From: Psammoneis japonica | Taxonomy: Eukaryota | Direction: 5' to 3' | Length of the DNA stretch: 64,000 nt | Assembly (NCBI GenBank): GCA_008632985.1 | Contig: QPGO01000157.1 | Coordinates: 62,001-126,000 of the forward strand | Shown: positions 12,527 through 34,363 of the stretch, piece after piece | Layout of the letters: the number at the start of each line of letters is the position of its first letter | Position numbering within the stretch: the first letter of the stretch is position 1 | Position numbers and translations under genes: made by a program | Notes under the pieces: model-generated | Told to the model about the DNA's origin: nothing | The model's input: the letters and a program-made list of their open reading frames with translations, nothing else | Databases searched by the model: none

Positions 12527-12811
12527 GGTCGATATTATGTTACTGTATGTACGTTGCGTGTTGCGCTGTTGTCCGTCTGTGCTGTGTGTGTCTCCCCCCT
12601 GCCCTGACCCCAAACGGACCGGGGACGGACGGGTAAGACGAAGTCGGGTACGGTGGGCGGGTACCGGTAGTGGGTAGGTCGGGCGGTAATGATGACGATG
12701 GTGCGATGAGACATGAGACCGACGATGGCGAGCAGCGGCGGTAAGAGTTACAGCAACACCACACAACACCGCCTTCGAGTTGTCAGCCATCATTTCCGCT
12801 TTACGAACAAA

Positions 12812-14320
12812 ATGCCACCGCAAGAAGCATTGCTTAGTGCAGAGGCACAACGCGAGTCGTTGAGAGAACCTTTAGTAGTTACTTCAGCACAGAACGACGA
12901 ACCGGAAACAGATCGCAGCCCCAACATTCGCTGGATCCTCTCCTATACTCTGTTTGCGTTTACTGGAAGAGCAGTTTGGTATCAAAGTGTGCTGAGTACA
13001 TATTGCTATTTGCTTCGGAATGACAATCCTGAATCGGTCGGCTTCATCACGTCCGTCATGGGAATATGCCAACTCTTGGCATCGATACCAACTGGCATTG
13101 TCGCTGATCGGTTGAGTCCATCTCATGGAAGACGTCGGGATTTGTTGCTTAGAAGGGCTGCTGTGATTGGAATGACTTCGTTTTCAGTTTATAGAGAGAG
13201 CTACATGCTCCTTGCCTCCGCGTTGGCGTTGTGGGGTTTAGTGTACGGTGTGGTCATACAGCCTTGACTGCAACGTTTGCAGATTCGATTGAAAACGGAG
13301 AACGTTCAAAATACTTTACACAGCGCTCAATACTGATCAAGCTGGGTAATACCATGGGCCCTACTGTGTCTTTGGTTCTCTTTGCCTTCCTTGGAGACAA
13401 GTGGTCGATTCGGGACTGTTCGATCGTCATGGTGGTAGGACAGCTGATTTGTTTGCCCTGCATTGTCCTCTTGTGCTGCACCAGCGATAGGCACGTGGTT
13501 CTCCCCGTTGATTCCTTGGAAGAATCATGCGAGCCGAACGACACCATGGACGTCGCTTCACCGAGCAACAACTTTTGTACGACTCACGTCGACATGAATA
13601 CCTTGAATGATTCGCCTCCTTCGTTGTTGCTACCGTCACCAAACTCTGCAGAGTCGAACGAAACGGAGGATGACGATTTGACGGCATATTTTGAATCTGA
13701 TGGCGACAAAATCGACAGTTCCTTCCTGATTTCGAGCATACCGGACGAGTCACAGTTTGAAGGGTTGCATGAAGAGCGCGGCTGGTTTTGCGTTTGCCAA
13801 GGACGGATGATTCCGATATTGGTGGCTGTAGCAGGCATCATTTCAGGATTGAACTCCGGTGTATTGGCTCGCTATTTCCCTATTTTCTGTAATGAAAAGT
13901 TGAGACTCGGACCAGCAATTGTTCAAGTGCTGGGATTGCTTGTCAACTCGCCGGCGCGATGATTTCACACCTTGCTCATCATTGGTCTTTGAAAATCGGC
14001 CTTTTGTTGTGTGATTTGCATTTACAAATGGAAAGGGCGAGTACGCATGGTTTCCATGAGTGCATCCCACAAATGTCGCAGCTTACCTGGTGCACTTGTG
14101 TTTGGCACATTTGCGGACATCCTTTATGAACTCGACGTCTGCTCTCACCAAGAGTGTCATGATGTATGGTGCAACATATGATGAACGTGGCAAGTGGAGT
14201 GCGCTTGAGTCCGTAACATGTTTCCCTGGTCGGGCAGTGCAGCCTTGGATGGAATCATGGTGTTTCGTTGAGAACTTTCGTATTTGATCAGGCTCTGCTA
14301 TCTGGATGTGTTGTTCATCC
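12812..14320 (+). pseudogene. MFS transporter, frameshifted
   Basis: MFS-like segments (PTGIVADR, FADSIENGERSKYF, GNTMGP, ERGKWSALES) split over several frames, with breaks near 13260 and 13960. Confidence 0.6.
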
Positions 14321-15181: not shown

Positions 15182-17770
15182 TAGAGACACTGCACCAGAA
15201 TGCACACTGTCGACGGGTGTGTCAGTGAGGTGTGTCCATCAGCAACAAGGCGTGCTTTGTGTCTGCCGTCATGCTTGACATTGCAAACAAGGTGCACCCG
15301 GATCTTCTTGTGTCCTGCTGGTGCGCTGGAGTCCTTGTGGTGTCCGCAGTCATGGAAGACCTCGCACTCATTGAGTTGAGTCATCTCGAGATCTGTTGTG
15401 TCTCCCCACTTGTGGTTGCCATTTTGTTCGTTGAGGGCCAAGGCATGCCTGCAATCCCACGGTGCTTTGCATCTGCACTTGCATCATGGTGCAGTGCAAA
15501 ATGAGCAAAGCTTGGCTTGATTGGCCATGTGGAGTTGTTTCTTCTGATGCAGAGCTGTCTTGCAAAAGTGCTTCCATCCATCAGTTTTGAGGAGGCCATG
15601 CTCACGTGCACAGATGGCACAGGTGATGGGATCATCCTTGGCAATGATGGCAAGGGGCTCAGACGTGATCTCCCCATGTTCCCATTCAAGCATGACTTGG
15701 CAGCTTGACCCTTTCCAGGAGGGGTCGTGAGGTCTCAACAGCCCTTCATGCAACACAATGCAGCAAAATTTCCAGATGGCTGTGTCATCTTCTTCCTGCT
15801 CCATGTGATGCATGATGTTGTTGTGGGCAAGGATCTCTTTGTGTTTGTCATTGTTGACTGAACAAATGAATTTGACCAGGTCAGGGTTGTCACTGATCTC
15901 CCAGTCGTGGTCCTCAACAGCTTTGATGATGCAGGCTCTGTGACACTGTCTGTCCTCTTGTGGGTTCACGAGAAAGGTGCACCCGACAATGTTGTTGGGG
16001 TCAAAGACTGGCATCTCAGGCATCCTGATCTCCTCCCCATCTGATGAATTGGGCAAATCTTCAGAGTCATGGTGGGATTTGATGATGGGTGCAGCAGACT
16101 CCCCATCAGGAGGATCAAGACACAAGTTGCATGTCAACAATTCGCTGGCAGCGGGGTGGACATCAGACCAGTGCAGAATCTTCTGAGTGTCGTCAGAGAG
16201 AATCTTGAAGGTCATTTGATGGCCCACATGTTCAGCAATGCCAACAAAGTGACCACGCAGCTTGCAGGATTCAGACGGCCAGCCCCAGTTGTCCAGGTGG
16301 CAGTGCATGGGTTCCCACCATTGAAAGCAGAGGAGGGGGCTGATGTTGGGAGCAGAGCCAGACAACACTTCGGCAGGGGTGCACCAGCGGAGCTTGGCAG
16401 AAGCCGTGTGGTTGAGCAAGAAGCACACGCACATGAGAGCAAGCAGCCAGGTGCAGGCCAGGGAGCCAAAGCAATCCATGATGGCATTGGCCATGTTCTT
16501 CATGGTTTGGTGACAGTGCTCAGCAAAGTTCTGATGCTGTTGATGGGGCTCACTTTGCCAGCCAGAAATGAAGAGAGCATGCGGGATGCCAAGGACCTTG
16601 ATGCTGATCTCAACTTGAGCATGAACTCTGATGAGCTTGGACAGAGCACCGCAGTTGTGAATGTTGTCCTCAAGGGCATTGACAAATTCCTTGTCTGTCT
16701 TGGTGCCGCACACATTGGTGATGAGTGATTCCATGCCAATGAAGAGCTGTGCACTGGTGCAGCCAGAGTCAATGGCGGGGGTGTCGGAGTGCACTGTGTC
16801 AGTGGCGACGGGTTTGTTGCAGTGACAGATGTTGAGAGCCGGGTTGAATGACTTGTGCACCTTTTTCTGGTGGGTGTTGGCAGGCATGTGAGCGTGTTGG
16901 GTCGCACAATCAAAAGTGCAATGAACAGTGTCCTTTGGGAGGAAGCCAAAATGGGGGTGCAATTGGGTGCAATTTCATGCTCATGGCATTCGTGGAAGAA
17001 GTCACAGGTCGGCAGGATGTGATGATCGAGCACAGGGTCCACAAGCACGGCATTGTTGACAATGTGATGGTGATGACGGTTGCCAAACTCGTCAAAGAGA
17101 TTGGCAGTGGGATCATCCTGGAGGTCTGACACAGTGTCGCACCATTTCTTGTCATCGGCGAACTGGTGGTTGAGTGCGGATGGGTCCCAGGTGTTGTCGC
17201 CAGTGAGGATGACATGAGGCAGGTCGTCCCATTCAGCATCAGTGTGCAGGCAAATGGCAATGCAAGGCAGGCCACCTTTGATGTTGATGGGAATGACATG
17301 GCCATCAATGGTGGTGATGCACTGCAACCCATTGGTGGGGACCTTGATGGACCGATCATTGACACCGTGCTTGTGCCACTCGAGCTGGCCACAGGAATGG
17401 ATGGTCTTGCCCTTTCCAGCGCAAGTGCACTGGTGAAGAATGGCAATGACAGGACCACATTGCATGTGGATGACACCACCGGCAGTGACAATGGGGGTGT
17501 CAACAAGCTGATGGTTGTTGATGCCTTGTGCATCAACCTGTCGATCAGTGCGAGTGATGATGACACGAACATCATCACCAGCAATGCCGCCATTGGCGCC
17601 ACAATCCACCAAAGCTCCTTTGCGTGTGGAAGTGTGAGTCGACGCAGAGCAGATGATGCGGTGAGCAGAGCGACTGCAGAAAGAGATCAACGTTCGCGCG
17701 GGGGCACCTGCGCACAAGGCATGACACAATTCTGTGGCAGTTTGCAGCAGGAGTGTCTGGCATGTCGCAA
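15182..17770 (-). mobile_element. Ty1/copia (CoDi-like) internal remnant: protease, integrase, start of RT; heavily mutated
   Basis: ALVDCGANGG, VATDTVHSDTPAID, WQSEPHQQHQNFAE, VKHDGRHKARLVADG; colinear with the full-length element at 19918-26995. Both TpA and CpG depleted. Confidence 0.92.
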
Positions 17771-17771
17771 T

Positions 17772-17904
17772 CAACAGGAATCATTCGAAAATGTTGCAAG
17801 AGTCACAACTGGCATTTTGCATGAGGAAAAATGCCAAATTGTGTGGAAATGTGCACAATGTCATGTGAGAGGGTGATTGGAGCCAGCAACTTTTCGGGAA
17901 CTCA
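17772..17904 (+). mobile_element. MITE family A, left part (the rest continues at 29315-29502)
   Basis: Starts with TIR CAACAGGAATCATTC and aligns with 36361-36493; the remainder resumes after the inserted TIR element. Confidence 0.75.
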
Positions 17905-18849
17905 GGCACGTTCCCACCCCAACAATTTCGGCCGCAAAACAAACATGGTTTTGTTCTGCACAAAATTCCTGCAGAAACTGTTGTGCAAGAAAAATCGCAC
18001 ATCTGTTTCCATCCTTCAATTTGCAGCCGCAATCATCTTCAAATGGAGACCAGGACAATTAAAAAATGGGTGACAGCGTGCCACTGCACATGAAATTGAA
18101 AAAAGACACAACATCCGCAACATCAAGCAGTTGCAAGAAAGGCAGTTGACAAGGTTGTTGGAGACAACAAGATTGACATCGAAGGATTGTGCACAAAATT
18201 GGTCTGGAACCCAAAGGCAAGCAGTGTGTCACATGCTCGTTCCACGTCGGCACTCGAGTTGACCTTGATGCCACCCTTGCACTTGCTCAATGGTGCAGAT
18301 TCAAGAACTCAGTTGCATCTGGCAGGGACGATTTTCAGATGGAAGCAGTTGACACCAGAGTGCAAATGAAACGCACAAGACTTTTTAAGTTGGTGATGCA
18401 ACAGTGTGGTTTCGACTTTCGACTCGATTGTCTGTCAACCAACCACATTTGACGGTGCAATTCCATCTGCTGCTGCTCTGCACAGTCTTGAGAAATTTTT
18501 TTAGCAGTTTGAAATTGACAGCTTCTGTGGGTCTGTTGCACTCCAGCACTTCCAGCATTGCACTTGCCTTGTGCAAGACGCAATCGCAACAAGAGTGTGA
18601 TGCTGCTGTGCCAGCAGCCCACGCTCCCACAGGTGAAATCACACACTCAATTCCATGTGCACTCAACAACTCCAGGGGTGTTGCATTGTTGCATTTCCTT
18701 GCCAGCTCCAATGCATTTGCCTCGTGCAAGATGCAATTGAAACAAGAACACCGGAGTGACGCCACTCATCCAGCATCCCACACTCCCGCTGATGCAATGA
18801 TGGGCTCAATTCCATGTCCACACAACAGCTCCAGGGGGTGTTGCGTTGT

Positions 18850-19285
18850 GGCACTGCAATGTGTCCAACACCGTCTGCGCCATGCCCATTGCCACCATCT
18901 GCTGGTGCAACACGTCCAACGTCATCTAGCACGCTGCACCCAATGCCACCCATGCCACCATCCACCAGCGCAACACATCCGACGCCATCTGGTGTGCCAG
19001 GCCCATTGCTGCCTGCACCACCATCTGCCAATCCAACACGTCCAACACCATCCAGAGTGCGCCGCACCCGATGCCACCCCTGCCGCCATCCACCAGCGCA
19101 ACACATCCCCAATGCCGTCCAGCGCGCCATGCCTGTCGCTGTCCACACCGCCACCTGCCAGTCCAACACATCCAATGCCGTCCAGTGCGCCACACCCAAT
19201 GCCACCTGGCCCGCTCCGCCATGTGCTTCTGCAACACATCCAACGCCGCCTGCGCTGCACCCAATGCCACCTGCATGCCATGGAC
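18850..19285. repeat. Degenerate ~60-bp tandem minisatellite (about 7 units)
   Basis: Recurring core CAACAC(A/G)TCC followed by CACCC(A/G)ATGCCACC-like tails. Confidence 0.7.
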
Positions 19286-19917
19286 AGTTCCATCTGATGC
19301 GCCAAGCAACGTGCCACAAGAATGGCTCCAAGTGCAGTTCTCAGTCATGCGCCATTGGCAAATCCGTCATTTAAACCAAGTGATGTGCCACCCACAACAC
19401 TGTCAGCGGCTCCATCAAAATGCACCTTCTGCACCATCACACGTGCCATCCGTCACATGTGCCACCCATGACTCCATCATCTGCACCAAGCAGTGCGCTG
19501 TTGTCAACACCATCGGAGCTGCCAAGTGTGGTCCCAAGCAAAGTGCTGTTGTCTGCTCCATGCCATCACTTTGAACCAAGCAACAAGCAATGTGCCATCG
19601 GTTTCTCACAAAATCGCAAGTTTTCACACAGAGCATTCTTCAGATGCATGGTCTTCTGACCCACGGCAACATTCGAATTCTTGACAAAGCCTGATCCACA
19701 CTGGGGGAAGTCTCCAGCCAGCTGCCAGCTGAAAAAGTCTGCTCGTCAGTGCGTTTGGGGGTTTTGCCAGTGCTGCAATTTTTGCACACACAAAAGACGA
19801 CGAGTCTGTCCTGCGTTCCCAACACCCCCCAACGCACAGATTGACAGACTCTTTCAGTGCAAATTCTGCACAAGATTCTTCAGCCAGCAGCTGGCTGGAG
19901 TCTTCCCCCAACACATC

Positions 19918-20189
19918 TGACAGAAATTGAAGGCAAATGGCAAGAATTCAAACAATGACTCCTGCTGTCTAAATGGCAGATGAGTCTCCGCTCAGAGACC
20001 GTTGCAGGAGCCGAAAGACGTGCAAGTCGGCACAATCGGGCTGCTGTTGTCATTCTTGTGAGCCTTGTGGCTCGAAAGCAAACTGCATCGCGCGCGAACG
20101 CGTGGAACTAAAGCACACAAAACTGTGCGCGGCAAACTAAACAGCGCGCGATGTTTCGCGCGCACCCAAATCCTGTTCAAATCCTGTCA
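19918..20189 (-). repeat. 3' LTR
   Basis: Near-identical to 26720-26995; TG...CA termini. Confidence 0.95.
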
Positions 20190-23100
20190 CTCCCCAGTTT
20201 GCTTGAGGAGCTGCAGAAACAGATTCGACTTCGGATGGGATGAAGTTCCAGAACATGAGAGGGCGGAGAAGGTCCCAGATTTGGGAGTGACCCCAATGCT
20301 TGCTGAGAATGTCAGCAGGATTGCGGGAGCCCTCGATGAAGTGGAACTCAAGGCAACCAGAGGCAATTGCCTCACGCACACGGTGGAACGACAGTGCAGT
20401 GTGTCGCTTGTGTAACTTGGAGTGCGGGATGGTGGCACTGTCTACAACCGACTTGTTGTCACCGAACATGCAACTGACACTGCGGATCGGGACGCCAAGG
20501 CAGCGCAGAGTGATGCGCAGGTCGACAATCTGCTCGACACAATTCCTTGCGGCAACAAATTCAGATCCGCAGGTTGCAGTCTCCACGGTGGCTTGTTTCT
20601 TGGAGAACCAATCAGCCGGGAATTTGTTGAGGAAGTGGAGCATTCCCATGACAGAGCATCCGGTGAGCATGCAATGGCACAAGTTTGCATCGATGCAGTG
20701 GGTGGCAGTGACGAACTTGCCAAGGGGCGGTGGAGCGTCCTTCGGGATCATCTCTTCTGCTTCACCATGCACGGAATGCATCCATTCACAGGCCGGAGCA
20801 GGGAGATCCGAACAGTCGGGCTCTTCCGTGCGAACGCGGAGAGCACCGTGTCGCATCTTGGAGAGGTGCCCACAGACGCGTTTGGCACGATCCAAGTGGC
20901 CTTGACGGGGCGCAGCTCGGAAGCTGGAGAGTGACATGACAGCCGTGGTGGTGTCAATTCGACCAAGGGACACTGCCCATTGGAGTGAACCAACAAGAGG
21001 CTGGAGCTTGTGAATGCCATCGGGTCCCAGTGGTTCGGAAGTGTCCAGCTCGGGGTGGTCACCCTTCTCTGGAGGTGACAGGGCGTTGGTGGCAGGTTTC
21101 TCCCCAAACAATCGGGTGCAGCTGTCGACCATGCACTCGATGCACTTGCGCGGAGACAGGCACAAGGTTCCGTCGGGGTCCCGGGAAAAGTCGCAACCCA
21201 GATGGAACTCAATGGGTCCCGCACCCTTGAGCTTGAACTTGCACTTTTCCGTGAGAGTGTCGATGAAAGATTGAGGGTCCTTCATGGCAATGGCGAGGTC
21301 GTCCACATGAATGCCAATGTGTTCACAGTGGTCGCCGTTCCTGCGCATCCAAATGTCGGGTTCGGCGCGGCAGGGGAAGAAGCCTTCAGCTCGCAGGCAG
21401 TCGGCGAAGTGCTCGTGCCAGCGGAGACCGGAGCTGCGAAGTCCATGCAGTGCCTTGTGGATGACAAGGATGTGTCCTTCGAGTTTGCCAAATTCGGGTC
21501 CAGCTGCAATGTAAAGCTTCTCCTTGGTGGTGGCTTCAAGGCAGGCATTGCCAATGTCGGTGGCCCATGTCTCCAACTCGTTGAGTTCGGCCAGGAAAAT
21601 CATCAGCCGAAGGCCACGGAGGGAGACTGCTCCGGAGCAAACACTGTCGACAGGTGCATCCGTGAGGTGCCCGTCGGCTGCGAGTCGTGCCTTGTGGCGA
21701 CCGTCATGTTTCACGTCGAATGCCAGGTGCACTCGGATCTTCTTGTGTCCCGCAGGAGGAGTGGAAGACTTGAAGGGCCCGCAGTCATGGAAGACTTCGC
21801 ATTCGTCGAGTTGGTCCATCTCGAGATTAGTTGCGTCTCCCCACTTGCGGTTGCCGTTGCGTTCGTCCAGTGACATGGCATGTTTGCAGTTCCGGGGAAC
21901 TTCGCATCCGCACTTGCAGCGAGGTGCAGTGCGGAAGGAGCGAAGCTTGGCTTGGTCGGCCATGCGAAATGGCTTCTTTTGGCGCCTCGCGACAGTGCGG
22001 AACCGCTTCCAGCCATCCGTGTCGAGGAGTCCGTTCTCTGGTGCACAGATGGCACAGGTGACGGGGTCGTCCTTGGTGATGATGGCAAGGGGCTCGGACG
22101 TGATCTCCCCACTTTCCCATTCAAGCATGATGTTGTAGCTTGAGCCTTTCCAGGTTGGGTCGTGAGGCTTCAGAGGTCCTTCGTGTGATGCGATGCGTCG
22201 AAATTTCCAAATGGTGGTGTCTTCGTCTTCTTGCTCAATGTGATTCATGATGTCATTGCAAGCAAGGACTTCCTCGCATTCGTCATTGTTGACAGAGCAG
22301 ACGAACTCAGTGAGCTCGGGATTGCCGTTCACTTTCCATTCGTGGTCTTCGACGGCCTTGACGATGCGAGCTCTGTGGCGTTGTCCATCCTCTTGTGGCT
22401 GCATGAGGAAGGTGCGTCCAATGATGTCTTGCGGATCGAAAACTGGCACCTTGGGTGTCCTGATCTCCCCATCAGCAGAATCGACGGGGTTGTCGTCATG
22501 GCGAGATTTGATGATGGGTTCAGGTGGCTCCCCATCAGGAGGATCAAGACGCAGGTTTCGAACGGCAGGATCGGGGGCAGCGGAGCGAACGTTGGACCGG
22601 TGGAGGATCTTTTGAGTCTCGTCAGATGGGATCTTGAAGGTCATCTGGTGGCTGACGTGCTCAGCAATGCCAACAAAGCGTCCACGCAACTCACGGGATT
22701 CGGACGGCCAATCGGAGTCATCGAGGTGGAAGTGCGCTGGTTCCCACCAGTGAAAGCGAAGCAATGGGCTGATGTCCGGGGTGGATCCAGTGAGAGTCTC
22801 GAGGGGCGTGCGCCAGTGGAGACGTGGGGATGCTGTGTGGTTGAGCATGAAGCACACGCACATGAGCGCCAGGAGCCATGTGTGGGCGGGCGAACCAAAA
22901 CGGTCCATGACAGTGTTCGCCATGCGCTTCACGGTCTGGTGTCGACGTTCGGCAAAGTTTTGGTGTTGCTGGTGAGGCTCACTTTGCCAGCTGGAGATGA
23001 AGAGGGCGCGCAGGATCCCGAGCACTTTGTTGCTGATCTCAACTTGAGCACGGTCGCTGATGAGTTTGGATGGTGCACCACGTTCACGGATCTGATCCTC

Positions 23101-25782
23101 GAGTGTGTTGACAAACTCTTTGTCCGTCTCAGTGCCGCAGACGTCAGTGACGGCAGACTCGGTGCCAACAAACAGTTGGGCGCTGGTGCAACCAGAGTCG
23201 ACGGCCGGGGTGTCGGCACAAACGGTGTCAGTGGCGACAGGCTCGTTGCGGCGGTGCACATTGAGGGCGGGGTTGGGTGATTTGCAGGCCTTGCGAAGGT
23301 GTGCACCGGCGGGCATGCGGGCGTGCTGCGTGGTGCAGTCAAAAGCACGACGGACCGCATCGGCGGGTGGGAAGCCAAAGCAAGGCCGAAGAGACTCGAA
23401 GGGGGGGTCCTTGGGCTTCACAGTGCGCTCCGGAGGTGGAACGTCAACGCCCGTGGGGTCACTCGCATGCAGATGACACTCGTAGAACACGTCGTCGTTC
23501 GGAATGAGGTGATCATCGAGGGCGGACGCGTGATCGTCAGACAAGGAAGCGGACAAGATGGTCTCGTTGACAACGACACGGTGACGGCAGTTGCCGCATT
23601 CGTCAAACAGGTTGGCAGTGGGATCGTCCTGTGGGTCAGAGATCGCGTCGCACCACTGGTCGTCGTCAGTGACAGAGTGATCGAGGACGGAAGGGTCCCA
23701 TGTGTCATCACCGGTGAGGATGACATGGGGCAGGGTGTCCCATTCGGCGTCAGTGTGGGGGCGCATGGCAACACAAGGCAGGCCAGCCTTGACGTCAATG
23801 GGGATGACATGGCCATCAGGAGTGGCAGTGCATTGCAAGCCGTTGGGCACCTTGACAGAGCGATCGTTGACATCCTGTTTGTGCCGTTCGAGCTGGCCGC
23901 AGGAATGGATGGTCTTGCCCTTTCCCGTGTGTGCGCACTGATGGAGGATGGCGATGACGGGACCATGCTGGGTCTCAATGACGGCACCAGCAGCGACAAT
24001 GGGGATGTCCACCAGTTGATGATTGTCAATGCCCTGAACGTCGACTTGGCGAGAGGTGCGTGCGATGACGCGAACGTCGTCGCCAACGATCGACTAGAGC
24101 GCCAGTGCGTGTGGAGCGATGAGCAGAGGCAGAGTGAATGACGTTGTGGTTGTTGACGCGGCGGTGAGTGCGGCCGTTGAGCTCTGTGTTGTCTGCAGAA
24201 GCTGGCGGGGTAGAGGAAGCGGCGGATGGCCCTGGTCGACTGGCATTGGGGGCTTGGTTAGGAGACAACAGACGTTGCAGATCACCGGGTGGCAGTGGCT
24301 TGCGCTTGGTGAGGTGCGCCAGGATGGGATCATCCGAAGTGGCGTCCACATGTGCAGCGGAGTCATCATGGTCAGCAGGAGTCGTGTTGAACAAGTTGAC
24401 ATCACCGTCACTCCCAAGGTGTTGGTCGTGAAGGTTGGCCGCAACAGACTCGTGGCAGTTGCGGGCTCGCGGGTTGCGGGGAGGCGGGCGAGAGTGCTCA
24501 AGGATGATCGCCTTGGAGGAATCGGGCAACGAATCCCAGAGCCGTTGGTGGTCGGGAGGGAGACGTCTCCATTGGACACCGGCGAGGCTGGGACCACGGG
24601 TGCAGGCAGCATTGGCTTGAAGGACGTCAACGTCGCTGTCAATGTCGTAGAACACATCGTCGGACGGTTCCTCGGAGTGGATGTCGTGGGCGTGTGTGGT
24701 GCGTCGGGGAGTTCGAGGTGTCGTCTTGGGTTGAAACGTGCTGTCGTGCTGAGCTGCCGCGGAGAGGAGCAAGCCACAGCATTGATCGCATGTGAGGCTC
24801 TTGCCACTCTGCGCACGATGCTGATCAGCTTGGTTCTTGACAGCACGGAGTTCCTCGACAGGGTGCACGGCATTCTCGAGCATGACGCGCTTCTGTCCTT
24901 CAGAGAAGTGGCAGCTGGCGGGGATGAGTGCCTTGCACTTGCGCAACTGATCTTGCCAATGAAGGATGAACCCGTGGGTCGGACCTTTCCAAGTGCCATC
25001 ACCAAGACGTGCGGTGGTGAGGTGCGTGAGCAGGGTGGAGGACTCGATGGATGCACGGGTGGAGGCAAGCGCGCATTCAGACAAGGAGCGGCAGACGGTC
25101 TGTGCATCAGAGGACCCCACATTTTCGCGAATGAGAGCCTTGCCCTTGTCGGTGAGAAGGATGCGTTCGAAGACGGCGAACATGTGCTTTTGCTGTTCAG
25201 CAAAGAGCAGTTTGTCTTCGGGGCTGGTCGGTTTGTACGACGAGTCTAGAATGCACTCGACGTCTTGGGCACGGGCTTGTGCCACAAGTGAGGTGTGCCA
25301 AGTGTGCCACTGCTTGCCGGATTTGAGAGCCGTGAAAGCGGTGGGATCACGCTTGATGCCTCGCTTGAAGTCTCGCACCGGGTCGCGTGCCTTGGTCGGG
25401 TTGGTGACATGTGGAGGTGCAAGGGGTGAGCTGCCGATGGACACAGAGGACATGCAGTCCGGGCTGAGGCGGCAGGCAAGGAACTCGTCATGCGTGAACA
25501 AAGAGGAGTCGTTGGCAACGTCAAGACCTTTGTGTGCTTTGACAATGTGCAGACTGACTGGTGCTGCTGACATGTTCTTATAACCACGAGGCAAAGGGAT
25601 TGCATCAGTGCCGTTGTCGCACACAAGCCAGTCGATTTGGGACGGTGTGAACGTGAACAGTTCCTGATGCGAGTCCGTGCCGTCTTGGGCCAAAGCCAAA
25701 CGAAGAGGACTCCCAGCACCTTGGGCAAGCACGGTGGAACGTGCTCGAAACCATCGATTTGTTGCTGACGAGTGAGAACCAT
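20190..25782 (-). pseudogene. copia gag-pol, Tyr-depleted
   Basis: Starts MVLTRQQ; FKRGIKRD gag motif; small deletion in the protease motif (ALVDR..GDD) near 24090; integrase SDRAQVE and QNFAER; RT HVDD; RNaseH GSEFVAA, FGDNKSV, NPADILSK. I count 3 Tyr in the 1291-aa ORF. Confidence 0.93.
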
Positions 25783-26719
25783 GGTGGACAAAAGTGGTGT
25801 CAGGACAATCAATTCTGATTGGGAAGCGAGGGTGGACTTGAAACTCGGGTGAGAACAGACTTGACTTGAAACAGACTTGACTTGAAATCTTGAACTGTCT
25901 TAAAATCAGAAGTCGCCGGGCTTTGCTGTCCCGTTCGTTGTCAAGTGCTAAACTTCCCATCCGGTCCGCAGAGTTGTGCCGGCACGTCCGAACCCGCAGC
26001 CAGCGGCGCTTTGGGTTGCTTGCGAGCAGAGCAGCGGGTTGTAAACCCCTGCAGGCAAGCTGACTGGAGGTGGACAAGACCCCCGAACCGTTCTTGTTTT
26101 ATGTCGGTTGGATTTCCCGATCAGGCTGGCCAGTTGACGTGGGCGTCAGGCGCTGTGGACGAACGAACAAACGCGGGAAAGCACCCTCGCCCCAACGCAG
26201 GCTGCAATCACGGCTGCTTGCTCTCACAGTCGTCCTCGTGGACCTGGCAGAACTGCAGAGCACCAGCAGTCCGGGGCAGATCAGGTGCAATGGACTCGGT
26301 GTGCTTGCAGAGTGGTGGCAAAACCGCAGTCCGAAGAGTGGGCACAGGTTCTTGGCCGTGAAGATGTGTGTGTGCATGTGTCTTCAGCGACGAAGATCCT
26401 TGAACATGTGGGGTTCTTGACCGTTAACCGATGAACAGGCACATCAAGGGATGAGGATCAAGGATGGACTTGGATGTGACCGTTGAATGCATGTCTTCAG
26501 CGATCAAAGGCAGCACAATCAATCCAGATGTCCAGCGGCGAGGAGACTTGACAGTGACGTTAACTTCCTGCCGATGCCCTGGCATTGAATGCGCACAGAC
26601 TTGCCGATGTGTGTGGGGCACATGCGGAGGTCCACGCAGAATTGAAATGGCGTCGTTGGTAAATCAACGACGACGATGGCGGTTGCTCAATGGGTTGACA
26701 ATGAGCAAGACTGTCAATC

Positions 26720-26995
26720 TGACAGAAATTGAAGGCAAATGGCAAGAATTCAAACAATGACTCCTTGCTGCTGTCTAAATGGCAGATGAGTCTCCGCTCA
26801 GAGACCGTTGCAGGAGCCGAAAGACGTGTGAGTCGGCATGATCGGGCTGCTGTTGCCATTCTTGTGAGCCTTGTGGCTCGAAAGCAAACTGCATCGCGCG
26901 CGAACGCGCGGAACCAAAGCACACAAAACTGTGCGCGGCAAACTAAACAGCGCGCGATGTTTCGCGCGCACCTGAATCCTGTTCAAATCCTGTCA
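26720..26995 (-). repeat. 5' LTR
   Basis: Near-identical to 19918-20189; followed by TSD ACATC. Confidence 0.95.
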
Positions 26996-29502
26996 ACATC
27001 ATGCGCGTGACAATTGTGTTCCAAGCAAAATGCAAATCAAGTGTTGGTCGATCAAGTGCAGACACACAACTGCTGGCACACAACAAGGCACATGGTTGCC
27101 ACTTGCCGGTGCGCCACTGCCTCTTGCCGATGGTGTGGGTCCACTGACATGATTGCTGTGTTTCCAAGACAAGCCAGTTGGCATCAACATGCAACAAACG
27201 AGTCGTCCCTGCCATGCACCGTGCATCATCGATCGTTGCTCTGCACTGCAAAATGGTGCATGAGTCATCAAACAACTTTCCATCTTTGTGGAGAACATGA
27301 CACACCAGCGATTGGCAGCCTTTTGTGCCCGTGACAGATGAGGTGGGGTTCTGATGTGTCACACAGCAACAACACAGACCACCGGGATGGGATGGACACA
27401 ACAAACTGACGGTCATGGCATGGAGGTGACGGTTGGTTTCTTTTGAATTGGAGCTTTGTGAACTTTTCCATGCGTGCGTGCTGTCACCCATTTTTTCAAT
27501 GTCCTGGTCTCCACTGTGATGACAGGTGTTGGTCGTCATAAATTCTCTCCTGCAAATGTAACTTTCATGGTGAATTTGGTGTTTTGGGAGCTCGAAAGTG
27601 CCGCGTCACAAGATCTCCCATTTTTCTGTTTCTCGTTTCTCCACTCCAATCTGCGCAACACCATGAACCATGATGGCACCTGCCGCATGAACGGACCTGT
27701 TCACACACGAACAACCATCCTGTCTGCGAAGGTGAGAATGCAGAGAAAAGTCAATGAGACCACGCTTGATGCGATCAAGTTGTCAGAATTTTGATTTTTC
27801 ATTGTTGTTGTGGCTTGTGACAACCATGTTGACTGATGGCATTTTTGATGTCTTTGTTTTTCTTGTTCAGATTTCGCGATGGGATTCTTCACACACCACA
27901 TGTCGATCGACTTGATGCTGACTTGAAACAGCAACACATGGTTTGATGCAACGGGGTGATGTGGTTCTTCAATGCACACTCCTGGTGTCATCTGCCAAGC
28001 CTTCGATTTGATTGAGGGTCAAGAACACACAAGGTTTAAGAAAAAAAGGCTTGTGCTCCATTGCAGTCGAACATGATGATGGACAAGCCATGCGCACTTG
28101 TTTCATTGCTCTTGCTGCAAGTTGGCACAACAACGCTGGTGGGGGTCAACTTTTTGCACAGTGGCTTTGGCAATGTGCCACACAGCGCCTTAGTCTGTTG
28201 TTTGTTTGTCCTGTGTTTGTGATGCACTCAGATCACTTTGAAGCCATGGGGTTTGATGTTGTCTTTGTGTGAGTGTTTTTGCAGTTGTGTTGGAGTTTCA
28301 ATGCTCCAACTCGCCCTGTGTCCTGTGACCTGGGGCCTTTCTGCTCGGTTGCCCCACGCCGTGGTGCATTGTTTCTTTTTGCTCTGGCTCCAGGCTTTCC
28401 CATTGCCGCTGCATTGCCCTGACCTTCATTCAATGGAGTTGCAACAAAGGAGCACTGTTTGGATGATGTTGCCGTTGCCTTTTGGAAACTTGAATGAAGT
28501 GCAACTCATGCCATGACAGTGCTCCTGTCAACGTGACTGCACGCCAGAGTGCAAAAAGAAAACACATTCATCGTGCTTTTCTCTCTGCACTTTCTCTTGC
28601 CAGTGGATTGGATGCTTTTCTTCTGACCTTCACTTGCATTGTCATGAATCTCAAGTGCAGAGCAATCGCAAAATGGACAACGGACGCGTTCCAGCTCTGG
28701 GTGGGACCTCGCACCACTGCACTGTGACATCAACAGTTTTTTGGATCGCATCGCATGTCGCGCGCGCACATTTCTGCGTGTCACATTCTACGAAAATGTC
28801 TCATGCTCCCTGTTTTGCAAAGCCAAAGGCTTTCCATTTTCAACAGTTGTGAGAATGAAAATGTGCTGGGCACATTCTTCAATGTCTGCAGAACACACAC
28901 CCGGGCAAACTGCCATTGATGTGCTCCAAGTGTGAAGGAGGAGATGCGTTCGTAAAATTGCCTCTTTTTCTGTTGGTGATCATTCACATTTTCATTGCAG
29001 CACAAATTCACTGTGGAGCTTGCGCGCAGAATTCTGCGGGCCCAATGTCACACAGAGTCCCACCTGGGACTGGAGTCCGTCAATGATTGTTGCTGACAAG
29101 GTTTGTGCAGTCAACTGTCTTGACTGCTGCTTGTGCTCCAGACAGAGCAGCTGGCCAGCTAGAGCAGTCTATGGCAGCATTCTCACTGAGCTCAAAATGT
29201 GATTTTGATCTTTTTCACGGCTTGAATTGGTTCCCAGCCTGATGCCCGCAAATGCGCAAATTTGGCCCAATTGTGTTTGTTTTGCGGCCGAAATTGTCAG
29301 GGTGGGAACGTGCCTCAATTGAAATGTTGTCTGACCAAAGGCATTTTGATTTGCATGGTGAAGAGCACTGCCCTTGGTCAGATGACATTTCAATTGATTT
29401 CCCGAGAAGTTGACATTCGAGTGCGGATGGGTGGACAGACTGAAGACAATTGTTTCTGGTGCTCTTCTGCACAATTTCCACGCAATGACTCTGAGAGCCG
29501 AA

Positions 29503-31410
29503 GAGAAAATGGATGTCATGCAGTTGGTGCAGTCGCACGAGCAAGGGGCAGTTGACGCATGCATTTTTGCAGGCATTGCGTGCAAATTTTGAGCTGACTC
29601 TGGTGCGGTGCTCCTTTGTGATGGTGGGTTTTTGTTGTCTTCCAGGCATGGTGTCAGCATTCTCTGTGGACTGTCATTTGGCATGTGGTCTGGACAGGTG
29701 GTGGTCAATTGCATCCAGGTCATTTGGTGTTTGCAGAGGGACAGACCTGCTCCATCTTCCCACTGGGGTTGCCTGGAGCTGATCTGAGAGGCGGAAATGC
29801 GGGATCCCCTGAGGCAATGGTGGGTTGCCCTGACTGTGGCGACACTCATCCTCACATTGACGCAGCTGCACACTTCAGAATGTGGCTTTTGCCACTCATC
29901 TGAAAGTTTCGACACTGTCTTGTGGAGCATCACCTTGGCTTCTTTGCCGAAAAGCCCGTCGTGTGATGCAATGAATGGTGCGAAGTGACGGCATTGTTCC
30001 AGACATGGCTGGAGGTGCTTGCGCTTCTTCTCACGTTCGTGGCTTGCCAGGACTTCTTCTGGTGTTTTGGACAGGCATGACTTCGCGTCCGTGTCGGGGA
30101 TGCGAACATCATCCCAAAATCTCATGCCGAGAAGAGCTCCACGATCGCCATCCTTGGACTTGTTGGAGTTGGTGTTTCCTGAAGTGCCATTGGGGGTGCT
30201 TGAACTTCCCACACTGTGACCAGTGGGGTTGATCAGGGGTTCGTCGCACACACAGGAAGGTTTGTGAGCCTTGCCCATCAGGTCTCCGAGGTTGTCACGC
30301 ACTTCATCGTGTTGTGAGATGACTGGGCCACCCTTCTTGCACTGAAGAGCATGACTCATGGAGAGTTTGCATCCACATCCATCACAGCACTCCGGGAGGT
30401 TGGGTGGAGCACTGCCACACCTTAGAAAGAGTGCGTCGTGGAACTCTTGGCATGAGAGTTCTGTGCCGTTCAGCGTCGAAGGGCGCACTGACAGCCACAC
30501 TCCAGCCTTGGTGCTGTGCTTGACAGCTCTGGCCTGAAGGTTGGGTGGGGTCCCGAGGAACTTTTTGAGGGTCTCCCCATGTGCTTTGACTTTTCTGTCA
30601 GCTGCTTCCTGTTTCACTTCGCGCATGGTGTCCTTGTGGACTGCGGAGAAGAACTGGGAACGGCCGCGGAGTGAGTCTGTCACGTGGGAGCACGTGAGAG
30701 CACTTGCTTCACAGTTGTGAGCTGCGGACTCAGTTGGACGAGGGATGGACAGTCCCAAGAATTTGATCGGGAGGGCGGATCGTCGTCGGCCAAGGTCTGG
30801 CGGCCTGTTCCAGCTCCAGGTGCTCTGCTTTTCATCACGCGAGAGGCCGATTTTCTGCGCAGTTTGGCGCAATTGACTCCTTCAGTTTTGATCGTTTCGA
30901 AAATCGAAAGGTGAGTGTGCACCCAAAAATGCATGTAAAGTGTGCACTTGCCCTTCGATTTGGCAAAAAACGGATTTGGAAAAAGTCAATTGCGCCAAAT
31001 GCACAAATTTCCAAATGATGGGAATCGAACCCGCGCAGAGCACCTGGAGCTGGAACAGGCCTCAGCCTGTCAATGCTGGCAGGAATTTGCGCTGCATCGC
31101 GCGCTCCGCATCCGCAAATGATTCTCCACAGTCCTTTGCTTCCCATTGGACATGCTGCCACCGGTGTTGCAGGGACTTTTGCAGACCGGCACAGGCGGTC
31201 TGAGGGTGGTGAATCGCAATCTTGGCGAGTCCTTGGACGACCGAGGTTCACAACTCGGCTTTTTCCGCTGGCCAACGGTCATGTGTGTCCGTCTCACCGA
31301 TGAAGCCTCCAAGGCAGCAGCCACCAGACTTGACAGTAAAGCCCAGATCTCCAAAGTGTGCTCCAGCGTTTTCCAGGTTGCGTTCTGGGACAACTAGGAT
31401 GTTCTCATTG
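29503..31410 (-). mobile_element. 5'-truncated non-LTR retrotransposon with restriction-like endonuclease (CRE/NeSL/R2-type)
   Basis: End of RT (CLGGFIG for YLGGFIG; AGLQKSLQ..WQ), CCHC knuckle CDGCG...HALQC, HDEVRD, D.R.PDTD, EREKKRKH. Confidence 0.85.
30802..31061. mobile_element. MITE family B (~260 bp) inserted in the LINE
   Basis: 27-bp perfect TIR GGCCTGTTCCAGCTCCAGGTGCTCTGC; LINE coding sequence continues on both sides. TSD not resolved. Confidence 0.8.
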
Positions 31411-31766
31411 TTTCCAAAAAATTCTTTCTTTCGTTGTCGAGGTCGCGGATTTGGTCGCGGATGACGTTTGCCCCCCCGACGCGAAGGCTTGCGCGGCGGA
31501 AACACGAGTCCTCCTACGTACAATTCTACGAGTGTCTGCTTCAGTAGTATGTCGACATTCTTATGTTGTTTCTACGCGGACGGATAAAGGTAAGTTATGA
31601 CGATCTTTTTTCCCGCCATTTTCAATTTTTTGTATGATACCGCTCGCTCGTCATATCGTCGCGTTGTTGACGCACCGAACTCGTTTTGGTTTCTGTGGCA
31701 CAAGTGGTGACTGAAACAGGAAGCACCCTACGGTAAATACCACGGTTTTCAACGCGCCATCCCACA

Positions 31767-33972
31767 ATGGCGGACAACAGTAGCCCTGGGTCCCAAGTGG
31801 CGGTGAAAGAAGAACGAGAAGAAGTCGTTCATGAAACGAGCACCCGAACGAGTACGTCATCCGTCCCTGCTGCCAGCGGCATGCAGCAAGAACGTGGCGT
31901 TGCTGGCGGGGGGACGAGCCAAGATACATCGCGAGTCAACGGACAAGGAATGTGGAACGCGTGGAAGCGAAACTTTAAATCGCCTCTATTGGCCCTGTTG
32001 GATTTGTTTGACAACGCAATTGATGCATCGCTCGTGATTGATGAAGAAGCCTTTCACTTCAAAGGCCGAGGAAGAATCCATGTTATGGGTGATAAGGATG
32101 CCGAGGGAGTCTCCAAAGGGGTTTCAATCATCAATAACTGTCACAGCAGAATCCCTCCAATCGAAGAGGTCCTTGAGGTATTCAAAAGTAGCAAAGGCTC
32201 TCAGGCGATCGGCGAAAACGGCGTCGACACGAAACAAGCATGCGCTAGTTTGACCGATCTCAGCTTTGTAATGACTCGAAACAGAGACACTTGGGGCTTG
32301 GGTGTGATTGCTGCAGAAGTTCAGCGAGTTGATGGTATTGTTCTCCCATCTATTACCTTTCGTCCGAACCGTGAAGATCTTTCTCGTCAAGTCAAGACGA
32401 ACCCGGTACTGTAAGTGCGGCTTCTCAGGAACAATAACTGTTCTGAGACATGAATATACTGACTCTTGATCTTGTTTCGGATTTGTATGATTAATGTACC
32501 GCAGGGCCTTTGCTAAGTGTGTGTCCTGCTATGGCGATGGAGATTTCGAGACAGGTATTATGCGGCTCCTTACACATTGCAACGCCATGACAAGCCATCA
32601 GTGACGTAGGGCCCTAGTGATGACCACGTGTTTCTTATGGTACTCCATCAGCTACGCCACGGATCAGAATCCCTTGTCAGTAGCGAGAGCAGTGACAATG
32701 AAGGAAATATTGATTACGGCCTTCGAGTGCAGCACTTGATGCAACAGCTGACCGATGAGTTGCCACGCCAGTACCTTCACATTCCGTCTGAGTTTGGCAT
32801 TACTGTCAATCACCAACAGATCAGGTTCCAGCATTGGGAAAGAAGAATGGTCGAAATTACCAGCTTCCTGTGCAAAGTAAACCCTCATGATGAGTGGAGC
32901 ACGGCAGAGGAATGGGAAAGCCCTACAGAATCGATGAGCCTGCGTGTGTATTGTGGGTTCGATCCAGCAAGACTTGACGGAGAGTCTTCGTCCTCGTTGT
33001 CTCTTTATGTTCACAGCAGGCATTCTGGTCGTCTCATTACGGTGGCACCCGATGCTCGCAACACGTTGGGCCTAAACAACTCTGGGACGACCTTTGGCCA
33101 AGGGCTCACAGTTATTCTAGACGATTACATGTCAACATTGCCTCTAGACCCTACAAAGCAGGGACTTGCGTTTGCACAGCAGGCTGCAGGCGGGGTATAC
33201 AAAAAGAATCTATTCGCCTGGCTTGGTGTCTATGCTTCTCTTTACTACAATCGGCGCCTCGAGAAATTTGGCGGCACCAAGGGCGAACTCACGAAAGGCG
33301 TGCAGCAACAGCTACAGGCCGTTCAACGTCTTCGCGACAAGGACAATGTGAAGTCTTTCATGTGCGGAAAATTCACATGCTACGATTCTCTTAGATTCAA
33401 ACAATATTCCGACAAGAGCATTAGAAAATCGAGTAGTCCGTGCAAAGGTGTGTTTGCTTCGCGAGTTCTGAACTGTTTTACTTTCTTCGTCCGTCGCTCA
33501 CCACCGTCGTCGTATCTATTTTTTGTATAGTTACTCTAGGCGCAGATTCTCTGGTAAACCTGGATCCGCACCATGAAAACTTCGGACGCCCAGTAAGAAA
33601 CGGAAATCCACGAGTGACGACTCCACTCTGCCTCCAGCAAGGGCGACACCGCCTCCTGTATGGAGTCCGCGGCATTTACTAATGGCAAATTCACAGAGCG
33701 ATCGGTCGGACACCGGTGCCGTTTCCGTGTCCCCTGACAGCCGTGGTAGTAGTGCGCATGCAGAGCCGACGAATGTGTGTGCAGACAGTCGTCGTATTGC
33801 GTCGCTTAGCAAAACAGTAGAGAGGCATCGAGAGAGGAAGAAGCAATATAAAGAGGTGATCTCGCGTCAGCAAGAATTAAAGATTGCTTAAGGCCACAGA
33901 CAGAGTCTTGAGAACGAGATTAAAACCTTGAAGCAGAGGCAGCATCGTTTCATGAATTCTCCTGAGAAGTGA
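31767..33972 (+). pseudogene. MORC-like GHKL ATPase, duplicated pseudogene copy
   Basis: Copy of 57800-60066 with GENGVG->GENGVD, TGG->TGA stop near 32602, an 8-bp insertion at 32607-32616 and deletions in the last exon. Confidence 0.85.
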
Positions 33973-34363
33973 GATCACAATGAGAGTTCCGTCGTGCAGT
34001 GTGTCTAACAGCGACTGCATCATTAATGTGCTCGTAAACCCAGTTGGAGTTCAAAGTTGCTTGTGCATGCTGTGGCAGTTTGAATTGCTTTTTATTGCTT
34101 TGTTGTGAATGTCTTAGTTGTCTTTCGCTGCTCGTGCCATTGTTCGGCACCATCAGGCCAACACCGTGCTCTTTTGATCGAATCAATCGTTTTCAGATGA
34201 AATCAGAAATCAGAATCTTGATCGATCGCACCGCTGCAAGGAGACAAAAGACCAAAGGCGACAACGTCTTCGCTATCTTCCCATGCAGCACCACTTGTTA
34301 GTGTTGGTTGTCGCGTTAGCTGATCTGTAGAGACTCGATTGTGTAAGGTTCATGGCTGAAAAA

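Follow-up and report, generated by a model that had tools for sequence, protein, structure and literature searches.

Known systems of targeted dinucleotide mutation

The closest described system is that of Bigelowiella natans, in which integrated viral DNA undergoes hypermutation at TpA (Mettrop et al., bioRxiv 10.64898/2026.01.13.699255). According to that preprint, the signature was measured directly in mutation-accumulation lines, a high de novo rate occurs in only some lineages, and the candidate enzyme is an ADAT2-like DNA adenine deaminase. Editing enzymes favour U before the edited A, as its Discussion also states. A search of the open-access literature returned this preprint and no report of TpA hypermutation in diatoms.

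The locus described here belongs to the diatom Psammoneis japonica (GenBank assembly GCA_008632985.1), and its host genes resemble those of diatoms. It lies in a stretch of 64,000 nt (contig QPGO01000157.1, positions 62,001 to 126,000 of the forward strand), called the window below, and coordinates refer to this window. Transposable element (TE) DNA in this genome is likely subject to a local hypermutation that turns TpA into TpG or CpA. Several traits are shared with B. natans. Changes are only A to G or T to C, they occur at TpA and give TpG or CpA according to strand, and they are restricted to DNA that is foreign or integrated; low-TpA coding sequences of B. natans are rich in reverse-transcriptase and DDE domains. 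There are also differences. The host of the known system is a chlorarachniophyte (rhizarian), that of the present one a diatom (stramenopile). The B. natans targets are giant-virus and virophage inserts, whereas an LTR retrotransposon, an element with terminal inverted repeats (TIRs) and tandem repeats are affected here. The TA observed/expected ratio is 0.45 in the B. natans NCLDV region, as against a near-complete purge (0–0.14) in the diatom. Finally, TA loss here depends on the neighbouring bases (TAY is lost, YTAR is kept) and leaks into flanks, two features with no counterpart in the consulted sections of the preprint.

Fungal RIP resembles the process in that mutation is aimed at transposon or repeat DNA, affects both strands and is tied to a dinucleotide; sister copies diverge, coding capacity is wrecked and flanks are hit by leakage. 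Its polarity is opposite. RIP converts CpA to TpA and enriches TA, whereas TpA is here not enriched but erased to CpA or TpG, outgroup codons giving the direction TA to CA/TG. Moreover, a 5-kb inverted duplication in the window is unpurged except beside a TE block. Decay of methylated CpG likewise turns a single dinucleotide into TG or CA depending on the strand, and is active in the older TEs of this locus, but it is much slower: the young element keeps its CpGs while ∼95% of its conserved Tyr codons are lost. ADAR and APOBEC hyper-editing share deaminase-type, context-dependent and clustered changes in mobile elements, ADAR favouring U before the edited A. These enzymes act on RNA or single-stranded cDNA, leave a one-strand signature and touch retroelements only, whereas both strands and non-retro elements are hit here.

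TA-poor blocks coincide with transposable elements

Two TA-poor blocks were delimited in the window, with the following features.

15183–31400, TA-poor block 1: cluster of nested TEs, namely an old copia relic, a TIR element and a young copia element (41 TA in 16.2 kb)
15183–17780, old copia relic within block 1, by homology
17905–17945, plus strand, left TIR of the 11.4-kb element into which the young copia is inserted; TCA 3-bp duplication at 17902–17904
29274–29314, minus strand, right TIR of the 11.4-kb element; TCA duplication at 29315–29317
33872–36099, flank of block 2 in which TA and CG are partly lost relative to the duplicate at 55299–57900, by comparison of duplicates
36150–40862, TA-poor block 2: paralogues of sequence flanking the TIR element, and a palindrome (15 TA in 4.7 kb)

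TA density is 0–7 per kb in the blocks and 17–70 per kb elsewhere in the window. Per-kb observed/expected ratios for TA are 0–0.14 between 15001 and 31000 and 0.03–0.08 between 36001 and 41000, compared with 0.29–1.09 elsewhere, and CA+TG reaches 1.4–1.9 in the blocks. Within this one 64-kb window, low-TpA clusters rich in CpA and TpG thus have edges at TE boundaries, as in a system of the B. natans type. The left edge of block 1 is an exact TE boundary, the last TA at normal density being at 15182 and homology to the old copia starting at 15183. In the flank of block 2 the loss fades with distance: TA lost in the flank versus in its duplicate counts 13:1 in the nearest segment, 23:6 in the next and 10:14 in the distal one. 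In this 64-kb window the TA-erasing process is restricted to sharply bounded TE blocks, apart from some leakage over about 2 kb of flanking sequence. The 5-kb inverted duplication (82–92% identity) shows no TA purge except beside the TE block, so that duplication alone is not the trigger. The observed/expected ratio of CG is 0.85–0.98 in the young copia and 0.3–0.6 in older TE parts.

A paralogous empty site of the TIR element lies at about 36490. The 3-bp TCA duplication gives only a hint toward the superfamily of this element. Another 20 frames, taken from the relics, the TIR element and block 2, matched no Pfam family, and an 830-aa frame (10379–12871) had neither a homologue nor a useful Atlas match.

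A young copia insertion

The TIR element is interrupted by a Ty1/copia retrotransposon on the minus strand (19918–26995), with a 5-bp target duplication on each side.

19913–19917, no strand, left copy of the target-site duplication ACATC, by LTR alignment and sequence
19918–20189, minus strand, LTR A, the 3′ LTR in element orientation (272 nt)
20137–24093, minus strand, open frame of 1318 aa with the RVT_2 reverse transcriptase domain, by Pfam and homologue alignment
24026–26098, minus strand, 690-aa open frame corresponding to the N-terminal portion of the polyprotein, by homologue alignment
26720–26995, minus strand, LTR B, the 5′ LTR in element orientation (276 nt, with an extra CTTG)
26996–27000, no strand, right copy of the target-site duplication ACATC, by LTR alignment

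Assignment to Ty1/copia relies on direct LTRs with TG...CA ends (TGACAG/CTGTCA in both), the 5-bp duplication and the RVT_2 reverse transcriptase. The latter was confirmed in the 1318-aa frame (PF07727, E = 1.2e-20, residues 780–975); it is the sole domain reported by Pfam in the copia frames, and precomputed Pfam annotations of the homologues likewise contain only PF07727. A single frame break separates the 690-aa and 1318-aa frames, relatives being single frames of ∼1850–1930 aa.

Tyrosine codons give the ancestral state

The direction of change was read from protein columns with at least 80% agreement among at least 12 homologues. Tyrosine is conserved at 39 positions of the whole element. 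Only 2 are kept (2/31 in the 1318-aa frame and 0/8 in the 690-aa frame), 22 have become Cys (TGY), 12 His (CAY) and 3 another residue. Of the 742 positions at which any other residue is conserved, 667 are unchanged (Fisher p = 1e-31 against Tyr), and in the 1318-aa frame Arg remains at 47 of its 48 conserved positions. Every changed Cys or His codon lies one transition from TAY; 34 of the 39 conserved TAY codons now read TGY or CAY, i.e. A:T to G:C at TpA as in B. natans. Even the reverse transcriptase motif YVDD reads HVDD. Tyrosine makes up 3.0–4.5% (median 3.87) of 120 homologues, and 0.23% and 0.43% of the two element frames. In 78 related metagenome loci the TA observed/expected ratio is 0.49–1.02, none being TA-free.

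Comparison of the old and young copia copies points the same way, as CA/TG-discordant sites at codon positions 1–2 correspond in homologues to Tyr seven times, Arg never and another residue twice. The polarity of change is TA to TG/CA, and both strands are affected, as the Cys and His codons show; the 22:12 split is not significant (p = 0.12). No strand-coordinated runs of Cys versus His were evident along the frame when the codon list was inspected by eye. The proposal in the earlier note that TA rather than CG was the source of the discordant sites holds for the element as a whole.

Differences between the terminal repeats

LTR A and LTR B are 95% identical. Three dinucleotides are CA in one and TG in the other, three sites are T/C and a single indel spans 4 bp, and alignment reproduced exactly the set listed in the earlier note. 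CA of LTR A at 20023–20024, 20033–20034 and 20167–20168 faces TG of LTR B at 26829–26830, 26839–26840 and 26973–26974. T in LTR A faces C in LTR B at 20050, 20103 (CGTG/CGCG) and 20109 (CTAAAG/CCAAAG), and LTR B has an additional CTTG after 19961 in LTR A coordinates. LTR A retains TA at 19970, 20109 and 20138. Seven of the nine mismatched bases sit at TA-derived sites and only two have another origin, which bears out the view that LTR-divergence dating is inflated in such genomes. The two TIR arms, 41 nt each, also conform to the pattern first described for them, since their sole difference is CCCCAAC versus CCCTGAC.

Chance alone would give at least three adjacent pairs from nine random mismatches in 272 columns in 0.15% of 200,000 trials, a simulation that counts any adjacent pair without demanding CA/TG. 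Terminal-repeat pairs of related metagenome elements contain 2 CA/TG events among 139, and the CA/TG share in the LTRs differs from theirs (Fisher p = 4e-4, entered as 2/135). For this comparison 78 loci were fetched, 18 of which gave 24 long direct-repeat pairs; many of these are exact k-mer overlaps of 91–127 nt at contig ends and uninformative, and 11 pairs were used. Coming from other organisms, they show only that CA/TG pairs are no general property of such elements. When the initial 38 nt of the LTR were looked for in the metagenome contigs by exact match, 0 matches were obtained. Within the 64-kb window, repeat pairs inside the TA-poor blocks show 62 CA/TG events among 580 and pairs outside them 3 among 410. 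The young block pairs follow the same pattern, with 3/6 in the LTRs and 5/11, 4/18, 3/12 and 1/4 in the others.

Family copies and the timing of the LTR changes

Alleles of the copia family were taken from contigs built from reads of one sample, possibly the sample used for the assembly, and therefore provide no independent check of it; 40 of the 86 variable places are listed. At 20033 the family carries T at 12–39% of depth with no comparable row at 20034 among the places listed, so that the family allele there is TA. Whether the discordant LTR sites had been TA or CG, the check proposed in the earlier note, is thereby answered in favour of TA at one of the three sites, among the 40 places listed. 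In these same places, TA alleles occur where the window copy has CA or TG at 20033 (12%), 20043 (24%), 20049 (14%) and 20051 (36%), and likewise at 20085 (63%), 20133 (63%), 20471 (64%) and 20482 (46%). The one at 20471 restores a conserved Tyr codon. Codon 1198 is TGC in the window copy, CAC in 41% of the family and Tyr in homologues. One contig (record 10 of X2) has TA, or a letter that makes TA, at five sites where the window copy has CA or TG. A reading of the family TA alleles as RIP-like derived states (CA to TA) was rejected, as outgroup proteins carry Tyr there.

The three LTR sites were probably mutated in place after insertion. An alternative, possible though in our view less likely, is that gene conversion or another exchange overwrote one LTR with a paralogous LTR, in which case the CA/TG sites would be older differences between copies, still derived from TA. 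The CTTG of LTR B, which base substitution cannot produce, is found in 7 contigs at 6.8% of depth in X1 and at 11–22% of depth in X2–X4, and more copies with these letters are present among loose ends at 19962/19963. Gene conversion is therefore possible, and part of the LTR difference may be imported. With the exception of 20103, LTR A shows the commonest family state at the discordant sites (CA at all three CA/TG sites), and all differences apart from 20103 fall within 19961–20168, so that one conversion tract could suffice. The family is also highly repeated: summed contig depth over the LTR is 2.5–6.8e5, against ∼60 for listed single contigs, although summed depth is not copy number. Against this, the matching 5-bp target duplication marks a single intact insertion, which would allow conversion only, without crossover between elements. 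In addition, young non-LTR paralogue pairs in the blocks have an equally high CA/TG share, and resolution in place must be common in any case. The assertion that mutation came after insertion and on both strands consequently stands for the strands (Cys 22, His 12), but not as firmly for the timing, given a CTTG common to 7–22% of family depth.

Other explanations of TA loss

Decay of methylated CpG on both strands supposes that the discordant sites were CG and became TG in one LTR and CA in the other. CpG loss does operate here: older TE parts are CpG-poor (CG observed/expected 0.3–0.6), the old and young copia copies differ at 53 CA/CG and 38 CG/TG sites, and at codon positions 3–1 a G-starting codon fits 11 of 28 CA/TG sites. 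It does not explain the LTR differences, because the LTRs have 21 intact CpGs in common and are separated by a single CG/TG site, a situation in which double hits at three sites are expected ∼0.005 times by our own arithmetic. Arg codons are kept, the young element has a CG observed/expected ratio of 0.85–0.98, homologues have Tyr and never Arg at codon positions 1–2, and among the places listed only one discordant LTR site, 20033, has a third allele, which is TA and not CG. Among these places no ancestral CG is found at the LTR CA/TG sites, and the copy shows no general CpG loss. Double CpG decay was rejected on retained CpGs, Tyr/Arg codon counts and composition, and is now considered very improbable.

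A-to-I editing of retrotransposon RNA, of ADAR-like or fungal type (U before the edited A) and fixed by reverse transcription, appears just as unlikely. The preference of such enzymes for U before the edited A would suit TpA, and Cys codons, which result from A to G on the sense strand, exceed His codons by 22 to 12. His codons, however, reflect T to C on the sense strand and still represent 12 of 34 changes (p = 0.12 for 22:12), and the LTRs differ from each other. The TIR element, in which no reverse transcriptase is recognisable, is also hit, and so are tandem repeats and a duplicated flank over 2 kb. That both strands are affected, and targets other than retroelements too, argues against RNA editing, as the earlier note had concluded. 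The note's premise that edited cDNA must enter both LTRs does not strictly hold, in our reading, when reverse transcription is in its late steps.

A selective advantage of avoiding TA, gained by an active element through, say, escape from a TA-reading nuclease or mark, also has very little to recommend it. Many TA-to-TG/CA changes appear fixed in the family (e.g. no variation is listed at codon 1175) and would then be present in transposing lineages, and the frames are still open. Yet nearly invariant tyrosines are replaced, including that of YVDD (now HVDD), and TA is absent to the same degree from a dead relic, from tandem repeats and from the non-coding LTRs and TIRs. Since TA loss makes no stop codons, open frames would in our view be no evidence of function.

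An artefact, whether a miscalled TA base modification in heterochromatin or short-read polishing that mixed alleles of an abundant family polymorphic at exactly the discordant sites, could touch the comparison of LTR A and LTR B but not the overall TA purge, and is scarcely credible, as contigs hold TA and CA/TG alleles in different copies (hence no uniform miscall), block edges match TE edges and the changes seen in the proteins form a clean signature of nothing but single transitions.

Possible mechanism and significance

In the hypermutation favoured here, an A-to-G change on one strand or the other would convert TpA to TpG or CpA. Once copies have separated, each ancestral TA would be resolved independently, so that some sites become CA in the first copy but TG in the second. 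The differences between the LTRs, between the TIRs and within the remaining young repeat pairs of the blocks would be accounted for in this way. The chemistry is most likely an enzymatic deamination of DNA adenine to hypoxanthine, read as G, as proposed for B. natans; a thymine modification that mispairs with G would be an alternative. The process may serve in genome defence.

It is tempting to go further and propose, quite tentatively, that diatoms possess a chromatin-targeted defence based on DNA adenine deamination, which would strip TpA from transposons in a RIP-like manner with opposite polarity. It would be shared with chlorarachniophytes, and hence old within SAR, or have arisen twice; it would act much faster than CpG decay, prefer 5′-TAY-3′ and spread over 1–2 kb of adjacent sequence. 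Its products would be long, open, tyrosine-free ‘ghost’ frames without new stops, which annotation would call intact.

If confirmed genome-wide, this would add a second case of TpA-directed hypermutation aimed at invading DNA, in a lineage phylogenetically far from the first. What is so far a curiosity of one species would become a candidate for a genome defence widespread among eukaryotes. The enzyme could then be searched for by comparing the diatom and B. natans lineages. ‘Intact’ open reading frames of TEs would be unusable as evidence of activity, and loss of Tyr with gain of Cys and His would offer a simple protein-level marker of the process.

Sequence context of TA loss

Loss depends on the flanking bases. 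Among TA surviving in the blocks, 30 of 56 are in YTAR and 1 of 56 in RTAY; outside the blocks the counts are 317 and 513 of 1792. TA followed by a pyrimidine is thus most readily lost, and YTAR survives. Context may also influence the outcome: Tyr codons after a purine became Cys in 8 cases and His in 9, and those after a pyrimidine Cys in 14 and His in 3, with 2 kept as Tyr (p = 0.07). By our reading, the context rule is wrong at 2 of 11 checkable family sites (20051 and 20212–20213). LTR B carries the context-disfavoured outcome at two sites where context predicts CA (G-TA-A and A-TA-A). The preference of TAY over YTAR constrains what the enzyme may recognize.

TA loss in transposable-element DNA

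TA has been massively turned into TG or CA in the window, specifically in the DNA of transposable elements (TEs). Among the elements concerned are a young copia element and its host element.

Features of the nested elements
19918-26995, minus strand: Ty1/copia LTR retrotransposon, with LTRs, TSD and RVT_2
19918-20189, minus strand: LTR A, the 3′ LTR in the element's sense, from the repeat pair alignment
26720-26995, minus strand: LTR B, from the repeat pair alignment
17905-29314: TIR element hosting the copia insertion, 11.4 kb, with 41-bp TIRs and a 3-bp duplication (TCA)

The ancestral state emerges from an outgroup test with protein homologues, restricted to alignment columns with 12 or more homologues and at least 80% agreement among them. 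In the copia element, conserved tyrosine is kept at 2 of 39 positions, with Cys (TGY) at 22 and His (CAY) at 12, and each replacement is a single transition from TAY; conserved residues of the other types, taken as one group, are retained at 667 of 742 positions. The reverse transcriptase motif YVDD reads HVDD. Tyrosine content is 0.2–0.4%, versus 3.0–4.5% in 120 homologues, and no TA-free element was found among 78 related loci. At the DNA level, only 41 TA are counted in one TA-poor block (block 1, 15183-31400) and 15 in a second (block 2, 36150-40862), the rest of the window having 17–70 TA per kb. CA+TG in both blocks is 1.4–1.9 times the expectation, and the left edge of block 1 coincides exactly with the start of homology to an old copia relic. 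Collectively, Tyr codons and TA-poor blocks indicate that the ancestral dinucleotide was TA.

The two LTRs differ by CA/TG dinucleotides at 20023-4, 20033-4 and 20167-8 (n = 3), by T/C at 20050, 20103 and 20109 (n = 3) and by one 4-bp indel, and the sole difference between the TIR arms is one CA/TG. LTR alignment and TIR comparison thus reproduce exactly the CA/TG pattern described in the earlier note. Chance is rejected for these pairs: nine random mismatches yield three or more adjacent pairs in 0.15% of simulated trials, terminal-repeat pairs of related elements in metagenomes show 2/139 CA/TG events, and within the window such events number 62/580 in repeat pairs inside TE blocks versus 3/410 outside. 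In younger repeat pairs of the blocks, the CA/TG shares are 3/6, 5/11, 4/18, 3/12 and 1/4. The nine LTR mismatches amount to 3.3%; setting aside those at TA-derived sites leaves just two, 20050 and 20103. LTR dating is therefore inflated, whichever the origin of the differences.

Double CpG decay was the first reading of the LTR CA/TG sites and was dropped on three counts. The LTRs have 21 intact CpGs in common and a single CG/TG site, so that three sites hit twice would be unexpected; the young copia element is not CpG-depleted; and conserved Arg persists at 47 of 48 positions. CpG decay is also present in the window, but it is slower than TA loss.

Family copies in reads

Contigs from four runs of one sample, possibly the source of the assembly, were aligned to 19700-20700. 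The copia family is strongly repetitive, and its copies vary at precisely TA/CA/TG-type sites. Among the variable places listed (40 of 86), 25 lie in the element: four are CA/TG, eight TA versus CA/TG, five CpG and eight other. The CA/TG dimorphisms are:

20003-4, 20152-3, 20212-3 and 20501-2, among the variable places listed

At all four, the depth of the TA-making letter is at least that of the CG-making letter, and no CG consensus occurs among the 40 of 86 variable places listed. Codon 1208 is TAC (Tyr) in 64% of the family and TGC in the window copy; at codon 1198, where homologues have Tyr, the family is divided between TGC and CAC. One same-sample contig (X2 record 10) carries TA or a TA-making letter at five sites that read TG or CA in the window copy, one of them being the LTR-discordant site 20033. 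At 20023-4 and 20167-8, the family has no majority alternative.

Mode of action

Replacement of Tyr by both Cys (22) and His (12) means that both strands are affected, and the split is not significantly unequal (p = 0.12). TA is as scarce in the DNA transposon, the tandem repeats and the dead relic as it is in the retrotransposon.

An inverted duplication (31422-36099 and 55299-60428; 5 kb, 82–92% identity, ∼19 kb apart), in whose frames no Pfam family was found, has normal TA content save for the 2 kb adjoining block 2. In the copy adjoining block 2, TA loss versus the partner is 13:1 over the 0.5 kb closest to the block, 23:6 over the 1.5 kb that follow and 10:14, hence no loss, over the distal 2.5 kb; CpG loss shows the same gradient. 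The distal part rules out duplication alone as the trigger.

Taken together, the effect on both strands, the TA-free non-retro sequences and the flank gradient point to a process that has chromosomal DNA as its substrate, within a domain of TEs or heterochromatin. Editing of retrotransposon RNA does not fit such targets.

Surviving TA is of the YTAR type in 30 of 56 cases in the blocks versus 317 of 1792 outside, and of the RTAY type in 1 of 56 versus 513 of 1792. Purine-preceded Tyr codons gave Cys 8 and His 9, pyrimidine-preceded ones Cys 14, His 3 and Tyr 2 (p = 0.07). The favoured target is A in 5′-TAY-3′, equivalently T in 5′-RTA-3′. The most economical route would be deamination of adenine in DNA to hypoxanthine, which would be read as G; oxidised thymine mispairing with G would be an alternative chemistry with an identical pattern. 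We infer a defence function for TA erasure.

Departures from conserved residues other than Tyr in 20137-24093 are also mostly A to G or T to C. In the 1318-aa frame, they include K to R (5), T to A (4), V to A (4), I to V (3), I to T (2), L to P (2) and K to E (2). GC reaches 56–60% in the copia element versus ∼48% in its surroundings. Given this excess and the raised GC, non-TpA adenines may be hit too, at a lower rate.

Many overlapping frames >150 aa occur on either strand and in several phases at 20190-26719 and 15183-17780. No stop codon can arise through the removal of TA, so heavily mutated elements retain long open frames, which gene callers could take for genes.

Comparison with known processes

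The closest match is TpA hypermutation in the chlorarachniophyte Bigelowiella natans, where the signature was measured directly in mutation-accumulation lines (bioRxiv 10.64898/2026.01.13.699255). There, two integrated viral regions acquired 231 mutations, of which 230 were A to G or T to C, all of these on TpA, at a rate ∼1000 times the background, and low-TpA, high-CpA+TpG windows are clustered. Adenine deamination in DNA is the hypothesis of that study, with an ADAT2-like protein as proposed candidate enzyme. In the open-access literature searched, this kind of process was known from that preprint, and no report of TpA hypermutation in diatoms was found. The process in the window is of the same kind, in a different supergroup lineage; its targets are transposons and it has nearly run to completion. 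The window adds a flanking-base rule, leakage into flanks and a protein marker, in which Cys and His take the place of Tyr. RIP is ruled out by its opposite polarity, and ADAR- or APOBEC-type editing by the both-strand and non-retro targets.

Timing of the LTR differences

Mutation in place after insertion is the somewhat favoured origin of the LTR differences. A TA-bearing LTR pair would then become CA/TG at some sites and CA/CA or TG/TG at others, with TA/CA at sites half-way through; 20109 is such a TA/CA case. Among six candidate LTR TA sites, three are lost in both LTRs, one in one LTR and two are kept, an outcome that simple arithmetic makes unremarkable at a loss probability of ∼0.6 per LTR. 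Import by gene conversion is less probable, though a serious contender: a single tract across 19961-20168 would account for all LTR differences but one. LTR A has the family majority at every discordant site save 20103, a private CpG-to-TpG change, and the CTTG indel of LTR B recurs in 7–22% of the family depth. Mixing during assembly or polishing is very improbable. The majority match of LTR A and the indel that LTR B shares with part of the family speak against a firm choice of in-place mutation. Ancestral TA, action on both strands and on DNA, and inflated dating, all claimed in the earlier note, hold; mutation after insertion, also claimed there, is no more than the favoured option. Under in-place mutation, conversion and mixing alike, the CA/TG alleles descend from TA.

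Other features of the window

The copia LTRs end in TGACAG...CTGTCA, flanked by a 5-bp target duplication (ACATC), and Pfam detects the RVT_2 reverse transcriptase domain. The repeat finder carries the match between the LTRs 3 nt too far (ATC, 19915-19917 and 26717-26719), as the end of the target duplication beside one LTR happens to match the internal sequence beside the other; the true LTRs begin at TG. The coding part is divided between one open frame of 690 aa and another of 1318 aa, which overlap by 68 nt (24026-24093). As relatives have a single frame of ∼1900 aa, this overlap represents one frame break, which may stem from a mutation, from an indel in the assembly or from programmed frameshifting.

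The Pfam scan of frames recognised no transposase in the TIR element, for which a paralogous empty insertion site exists near 36490. Tandem repeats inside it (18556-19574; periods ∼63–65 and 159 nt) diverge mainly by CA/TG and CG/CA/TG states, with three TA left. A near-palindrome of ∼470 nt (36473-36946, 84% identity) consists of two inverted copies of the right-TIR flank (29314-29502).

The closest named relatives of the host genes are in pennate diatoms (47–51% identity), and the top Atlas cluster of a second gene is Bacillariophyta, which makes a diatom the probable source. The host-like DNA also contains an open frame of 830 aa (10379-12871) with no Pfam family and no homologue among 5.8 billion proteins searched. 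Paralogous GlcNAc-transferase (PF11397) frames lie ∼40 kb apart at 1655-2851 and 42125-43237, each adjoined by a 300-nt stretch, the two being 77% identical (3213-3519 and 43280-43584).
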